Shown here one piece after another: positions 41,392 to 41,687 of a stretch of DNA of 64,000 bases. Both the position numbers and the translations under genes were made by a program. The DNA comes from a virus (lineage: Duplodnaviria; Caudoviricetes): IMG/VR virus record IMGVR_UViG_3300021254_000020, positions 1-64,000 of that record, one strand, 5' to 3'. Under the pieces are notes generated by a model. The model was not told where the DNA came from and ran no database searches. It was given only the letters and a program-made list of their open reading frames with translations. Within the stretch, counting starts at the first letter, position 1. Each line of letters opens with the position of its first letter.

Positions 41392-41652
41392 AAATGAATT
41401 ATTCAAATTTAAACCAATTTAACAAACAAATGTATTATCCTTAACTAGTCCAATCATATGAAAAAATGTACGAATGTGGGACAAATCAATATTCGAGACT
41501 AAATGCATTCCGTGCTCTAGATCAATAATGTATATGACTGAACTAAAACTTAGCAAGATCAATCACAGGTGTAACTGAATATCCTAGAAAAGACCAATTA
41601 CAAGAGGCACTGAACTACCACTATATAAATACCAATATGATATACAAGTGAT
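41392..41652 (+). repeat. Dual-motif interspaced array 1 (7 units, 35-38 nt period)
   Basis: NAMTGHA at 41392, 41428, 41464, 41501, 41536, 41573, 41608 (degenerate AAGTGAT at 41646); YCAAT at 41414, 41450, 41486, 41522, 41559, 41594, 41632. Confidence 0.8.
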
Positions 41653-41687
41653 AAAGACTACCCGCATTTGGGTAGTCTTTTTTTTTT
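41653..41687. terminator. Bidirectional terminator closing array 1 and the convergent RNA
   Basis: AAAGACTACCC-GCATTT-GGGTAGTCTTT followed by a T run. Confidence 0.85.

Follow-up and report, generated by a model that had tools for sequence, protein, structure and literature searches.

The 36-base periodic array at 41392-41687 is real and is one of four such arrays scattered through a 266,420-bp jumbo phage genome that also encodes a large Tas (TIGR-associated) protein with no recognisable nuclease domain, and it is therefore most likely a new layout of the recently discovered TIGR-Tas RNA-guided system, in which the guide function is inferred from sequence and co-occurrence. The window, that is, the whole 64,000-nt stretch of DNA that was analysed, is the first 64 kb of this single viral contig (here G000), and the tas gene lies far outside it, at 262,729-264,999. 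The phage is a distant relative of the AR9, PBS1 and phiKZ group: its terminase is 36% identical to that of Bacillus phage BpSp, and it encodes a multisubunit-RNA-polymerase beta-type protein (phrog_3015) and a GroEL-like chaperonin (phrog_5725) at window positions 9286-11547 and 54949-56877, which places it among the phiKZ/AR9-like jumbo phages. The array and related elements are as follows.

41382-41398 (+): two leading AATGAA (box D-like) motifs, the first of which overlaps the TGA stop codon (41384-41386) of the upstream ORF 41111-41386, while the second (41392-41398) is where the array of the preliminary description starts.
41415-41650 (+): seven units of box C (CAAT), a 12-13-nt bounded spacer (10 variable nt plus a conserved A-a), box D (TG), and 17-20-nt variable linkers between units, with CAAT at 41415, 41451, 41487, 41523, 41560, 41595 and 41633 and the last TG at 41649-41650.
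41653-41687 (+): intrinsic terminator directly after the last box D, with a 12-bp stem containing 5 G-C pairs and then a run of about 10 T.
46774-46968 (-): second array of the same kind in the window, with five units (CAAT at 46942, 46905, 46868, 46831 and 46792 on the minus strand), just downstream of, and on the same strand as, the primase-like gene 47055-48122 (phrog_19847) and its hairpin.
46668-46685 (-): terminator-like hairpin with a T-rich tail, about 90 nt downstream of the second array, a consensus match only.
85.7-86.2 kb of G000 (-), outside the window: third array, about 14 units.
251.9-252.7 kb of G000 (+), outside the window: fourth array, about 19 units.

In the first array the CAAT motifs are spaced 35-38 nt apart, and each is followed by TG after 12 nt (13 nt once). 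The preliminary description, which had parsed the region as a TG motif, 11-14 variable nt, a CCAAT motif and 9-10 variable nt, was accurate in what it observed, including the drift from AAATG in the early units to ACTGA in the later ones. The periodicity is well beyond chance: in 20 shuffled copies of the genome the longest CAAT chain at 33-41-nt spacing was 3 (18 times) or 4 (twice), compared with 7 here and up to 13 elsewhere in the genome. A scan of all 256 four-letter words for such chains returned only these arrays in the whole 266-kb genome, and in 1.2 Mb of other viral loci the same scan gave only short AT-word chains, divergent tandem repeats, and the true TIGR array of Salicola phage CGphi29. 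Tandem Repeats Finder does not report the array, as expected for units that share only about 12 conserved positions, and searches of the window against Rfam (gathering thresholds) and for tRNAs found nothing.

A logo made from 45 units genome-wide gives A-r-a-Y-CAAT-N10-A-a-T-G-n-A followed by about 13 variable nt. The period is 35-39 nt (mode 37). The key regularity is that the distance from CAAT to TG is fixed (12 nt in 31 of 37 units, the rest 11 or 13), while the distance from TG to the next CAAT varies (17-21 nt in this genome). Apart from the terminator, the array RNA has no significant predicted fold (z -0.78). All four arrays lie on the strand of their flanking genes, but no protein is shared among their four neighborhoods.

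The possibility that the array is a decayed coding tandem repeat of 12-aa units, or another degenerate tandem duplication with no present function, was considered and is very unlikely. Some units are indeed related by duplication: unit 6 of the first array resembles a unit of the 252-kb array, and the 85-86-kb array shows a 72-73-nt super-period, in which a module of linker (AACTATCC...AATC) plus the following spacer (TAAATGTAT-like) recurs four or five times, indicating that the arrays grow at least partly by duplication, in this case of two units. Furthermore, two exact-pattern scans of IMG/VR otherwise returned only coding tandem repeats and chance hits, and nearly all hits in metagenomes were coding repeats of 12-13 aa. 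However, unit lengths of 35-39 nt are not multiples of 3, the longest sense-strand ORF inside the array is 34 aa, and only about 12 positions are conserved while the rest is near random (30-45% identity). The same conserved positions recur in about 45 units at four loci and in about 120 units in three other phages, a pattern of selection on the motifs rather than decay. An unrelated interspaced array was found by chance in IMGVR_UViG_3300010348_002389 (minus strand, near 9855 of the reverse-complemented locus), with a conserved element of about 26 nt (GCATTCAATTGCTAAACACAGTGC-like) in at least five copies separated by 8-11 variable nt.

The region itself is non-coding and begins directly after the stop codon of the small plus-strand ORF 41111-41386. 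This ORF overlaps the ORF 40888-41280 by 170 nt in a different frame, which could be a frameshift, or the ORF 41111-41386 could be a much shorter one starting near 41306. The three plus-strand genes upstream of the array (39796-40395, 40453-40875 and 40888-41280) are paralogues that share their N-terminal 28-80 residues (BLASTP 2e-7 and 4e-5) and have no Pfam or PHROG match. Pfam and PHROG searches of ten neighbors of the array gave a virion protein, a head protease, an endolysin and an HNH endonuclease, but no RNA-guided effector. The 355-aa HNH protein (43266-44333, plus strand; phrog_59, 2.7e-19), which lies between the virion protein gene and the lysis region, was considered as a possible TasH and rejected, because it matches only homing-type HNH proteins in PDB, and because a gene of the same size sits at the same place in two array-less relatives (L018, 12238-13314, and L019, 13604-14689) and is thus conserved there rather than newly inserted. 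A blastn search with the locus against 50,697 phage records gave no match, and a tblastn search of IMG/VR with the 432-aa neighboring protein found no relatives. Two syntenic relatives, whose primase is 64-67% identical, keep the hairpin of the primase-like gene but have no array at either of the two syntenic sites, so that the arrays at these two positions are recent additions.

The preliminary description had found no Tas/Nop or ToxN gene in the window, which is correct. A search of the whole genome with Pfam Nop (PF01798), as well as a direct search with TasH, also found nothing. However, the characterized TasH hits Pfam Transposase_20, and this model has exactly one hit in the phage genome, inside a 756-aa ORF (P0109) at 262,729-264,999. 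This ORF also matches phrog_4285 at 2e-10, which is the best PHROG for TasH (1e-27), and it aligns collinearly with TasH around an insertion of about 145 residues. The protein has 442 homologues in a library of 1.84 billion proteins, of which about 25 are orthologues of 650-790 aa and many are proteins of 280-500 aa, the usual size of Tas proteins. A profile of its C-terminal half hits the solved TasR (PDB 9mty) at 9.8e-29 and TasH at 1.1e-21, and hhalign against TasH gives a probability of 98.9%. The AF2 model (pLDDT 90) aligns to TasR with Z 16.9 (rmsd 3.1, 167 residues) and to TasH with Z 14.8-15.6, followed by IS110 recombinases at about 11, while the next match is 3.5. It is the only such ORF in the genome.

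With regard to the residues of TasH to which RNA processing is assigned (PMC13421893), Y289 aligns with the invariant Y736 of the phage protein, whereas the invariant H745 lies two residues beyond the column of H296, so that the His of the presumed processing pair is offset. The N-terminal 430 residues are modelled well (pLDDT 86) as an alpha/beta domain (residues 1-185) plus long helices, but when searched as a whole they gave no convincing fold in PDB by Foldseek or a wide VIA-align search (best Z 4.9, helical part only), in BFVD, or in the ESM Atlas (TM about 0.2, SPFH-like). There is no invariant Asp, Glu or His in this part among 22 orthologues. Therefore, we treat the protein as nuclease-less.

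IMG/VR contains three other contigs with orthologues of this Tas at 31-33% identity, namely G001 (290 kb), G002 (a 57-kb fragment) and G003 (284 kb). The scan for chains, which assumes no motif, found large arrays in all three, at 151.2-153.0 kb of G001, at 18.8-20.5 kb of G002, and at 131.7-133.5 kb, 176.9-177.8 kb and 266.1-266.5 kb of G003. These arrays are built as t-CTAT-N10-AATG-linker, with the same 12-13-nt distance from box C to box D and linkers of 18-27 nt, and a few units of G001 use CAAT. Each contig has one tas gene, located 14-22 kb from the main arrays; in G002 (34,343-36,516) it is split over two overlapping reading frames, due to either a frameshift or an assembly error. A two-unit pattern gave 21 and 27 hits in G001 and G003, with none for the reversed control, and 0, 1 and 1 hits, taken as chance, in the Tas-less cultured jumbo phages BpSp, AR9 and phiKZ. 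In addition, a metagenome scan that returned at least 120 loci included one true array, a CAAT-type array of about 12 units on a contig related to G001 and G003, with no tas gene in the 9.6 kb examined. It should be considered that the co-occurrence rests on four contigs from probably two or three lineages and not on many independent events.

Because these four contigs are all phiKZ/AR9-like jumbo phages, the arrays may have nothing to do with Tas, and the presence of both may only reflect shared ancestry. In this case the arrays would be phased binding sites on DNA, as the preliminary description had proposed as an alternative, or a multi-copy small RNA or decoy for another phage or host factor. 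The arrays are not next to tas, and a period of 36-37 bp is about 3.5 helical turns, which could phase a DNA-binding protein. Although this explanation is not excluded, it is doubtful, since the conserved letters are exactly TIGR-type box C and box D at a fixed distance, the motifs are directional, the arrays always lie on the strand of local transcription and end in a terminator, box C differs between phages (CAAU or CUAU) while the geometry is kept, and the Tas-less relatives lack the arrays. Nothing found in this analysis favors protein binding to DNA.

The dual-repeat TIGR-Tas systems (FpTIGR-TasA, SpTIGR-TasH and TaTIGR-TasR; Faure et al. 2025, PMC12045711) consist of an edge repeat, a 9-nt spacer A, a loop repeat and a 9-nt spacer B, in which both repeats start with UG (box D) and end with CCA (box C), and the array ends in a truncated repeat and a terminator. 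The reference array of Salicola phage CGphi29, which we read directly, has this build downstream of tasH. The present system resembles these in its Nop/IS110-like Tas protein with a coiled coil and a presumed Tyr/His C-terminal loop, in tandem units of about 36 nt with two alternating short conserved motifs, in a box C of the C-A type and a box D (UG) that flank a fixed-length spacer, in an unstructured RNA, in the terminator after the last box D, and in being carried by a phage. It differs in having one box C and one box D per unit instead of a D...C pair on each repeat, so that the defining build of two box-flanked spacers is absent, in a bounded spacer of 12-13 nt instead of 9, and in a second variable segment of free length. 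Furthermore, published arrays flank or overlap tas, whereas the arrays of this phage lie 10 kb to more than 100 kb from it: the nearest ends about 10 kb upstream of tas, and the array studied here is about 45 kb away across the contig ends, or 221 kb along the contig. The Tas is also unusual in its 756-aa size, its N-terminal part, which matched no known fold, and its insertion.

With the stem-loop TIGR arrays (Faure et al. 2025; Xu et al. 2026 preprint, 10.64898/2026.09.09.750476) the present arrays share the variable, non-repeat sequence between box D and the next box C. For those systems, array positions are flexible and the Tas proteins carry clade-specific insertions, and the motifs listed by Xu et al. 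for their stem-loop finder are CCA, CGA, CTA and CAA for box C and TG and CG for box D, which include the CAA, CTA and TG of the present arrays. However, no palindromic stems were found here: linkers fold no better than shuffled ones, and the flanks of one or two units do not pair, with energies equal to those of shuffled sequences in three phages. In addition, units follow each other without separate linkers between spacer pairs, and this Tas appears to keep a Tyr/His loop that stem-loop clades are reported to lack.

Three other systems were compared. In archaeal box C/D sRNAs with Nop5 a guide is held between a box C and a box D by a Nop-domain protein, and archaeal sRNAs keep about 12 nt between box C and box D', which is the distance seen here, but the present arrays have no RUGAUGA or CUGA boxes and no K-turn, and the units form arrays rather than single genes. 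ToxI of the type III toxin-antitoxin ToxIN is a tandem non-coding array with a 36-nt period followed by a terminator, but its repeats are near-identical, whereas the present units are 40-50% identical overall, with only about 12 of 36 positions conserved, and PF13958 (ToxN) gave no hit in the genome; ToxI is therefore excluded. CRISPR arrays also have conserved elements interspaced with unique segments and, as is probable here, are transcribed and processed into guides, but the conserved elements here are 6-8 nt rather than 25-36 nt, the spacers are 10-13 nt, and no cas genes were seen in scans of the neighborhoods.

The interpretation given in the preliminary description was thus partly supported. 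Its reading as a precursor of short guide RNAs is the one that the evidence favors, and it was right that the array fits neither the published dual-repeat build nor ToxI. In contrast, the effector is not unrecognized, because the same genome encodes a Tas-family protein, and the array is not unrelated to TIGR, because it uses TIGR-type box C (CAA) and box D (UG) around a fixed-length spacer, has the 36-37-nt period, and ends in a terminator.

We consider it fairly likely that the four loci are dispersed guide-RNA arrays, about 45 units in all, of a TIGR-Tas-type system whose single effector gene lies elsewhere in the genome. Our analysis demonstrates the anatomy of the arrays, their copies across the genome, the identity of the Tas protein and the co-occurrence of the two across phages, whereas transcription, processing, binding, the pairing of units, DNA targeting and the function of the system are inferred. 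In this view, the arrays would be read through from the genes upstream and stopped by the terminator, Tas would bind box C and box D and cut the precursor with its Tyr/His loop, and the bounded spacers would then be used to find complementary DNA. Because only the interval from box C to box D is held to a fixed length, we favor one spacer per unit, with the linker playing the part of the short loop or edge repeat of canonical tigRNAs; it would join the box D of one unit to the box C of the next on the same Nop domain, so that a Tas dimer would use two neighboring units, or two separately processed units, as its spacer pair. Since no nuclease domain is recognizable, the expected output is RNA-guided DNA binding, such as repression, rather than cleavage, as reported for TasA and dead TasR. 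Searches for targets gave no significant match of spacers and linkers to the phage's own genome or to G001 and G003. Full spacers matched the phage's own genome less often than shuffled ones (1 against about 7; 13 of 1000 shuffles were as low), but the 10-nt cores showed no such depletion, and this is weak evidence either way.

Alternatively, each 36-37-nt unit could be one dual-spacer tigRNA in the canonical sense, with an edge repeat (AraYCAAU), a spacer A of 10 nt, a loop repeat (AaUGnA) and a spacer B of 11-15 nt, the box motifs having become split between the two repeats. This is the parse of the preliminary description attached to the Tas found here. The period, the two alternating motifs and the two variable segments are in favor of it, as is the presumed Tyr/His loop, typical of dual-repeat Tas proteins, which cut 36-nt guides. 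Moreover, the two variable segments differ in base composition in the same way in all four phages, the first being A- and purine-rich and the second balanced with C above G, which could reflect pairing to opposite strands. However, this alternative appears unlikely, because the second segment varies in length within one array while the first is fixed in all four phages, because the second segment is bounded by box D on its 5' side and box C on its 3' side, the reverse of a spacer, because published arrays have the same box pair on both repeats, matching a symmetric dimer, and because the period in the relatives is 38-43 nt and not 36.

TIGR-Tas was described in 2025, and the current array finder detected arrays at only 6,685 of 20,096 tas loci, and it looks only near tas for 9-nt spacers with either dual repeats or stems. 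The arrays described here would be missed on every one of those criteria, and yet they show TIGR-type boxes, a strict spacer ruler and a matching Tas in four phage contigs. It is possible, although we hold this only tentatively, that this Tas clade uses single-spacer guide units and that a dimer is loaded with any two of them, either neighbors joined by a free linker or separately processed RNAs, so that the roughly 45 guides from four scattered arrays could be combined. This would be a third TIGR architecture, and it may account for some of the many tas loci in which no array has been detected. The finding also adds a large set of putative guides with unknown targets to a jumbo phage that encodes its own RNA polymerases. 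If the link between the arrays and Tas holds, it shows that Tas proteins can work with arrays scattered across a genome, that the segment between box D and box C can be a free linker, and that a guide unit can be reduced to one box pair and one spacer, which bears on how these RNPs assemble, on how to search for the missing arrays, and on the design of minimal or split guides.
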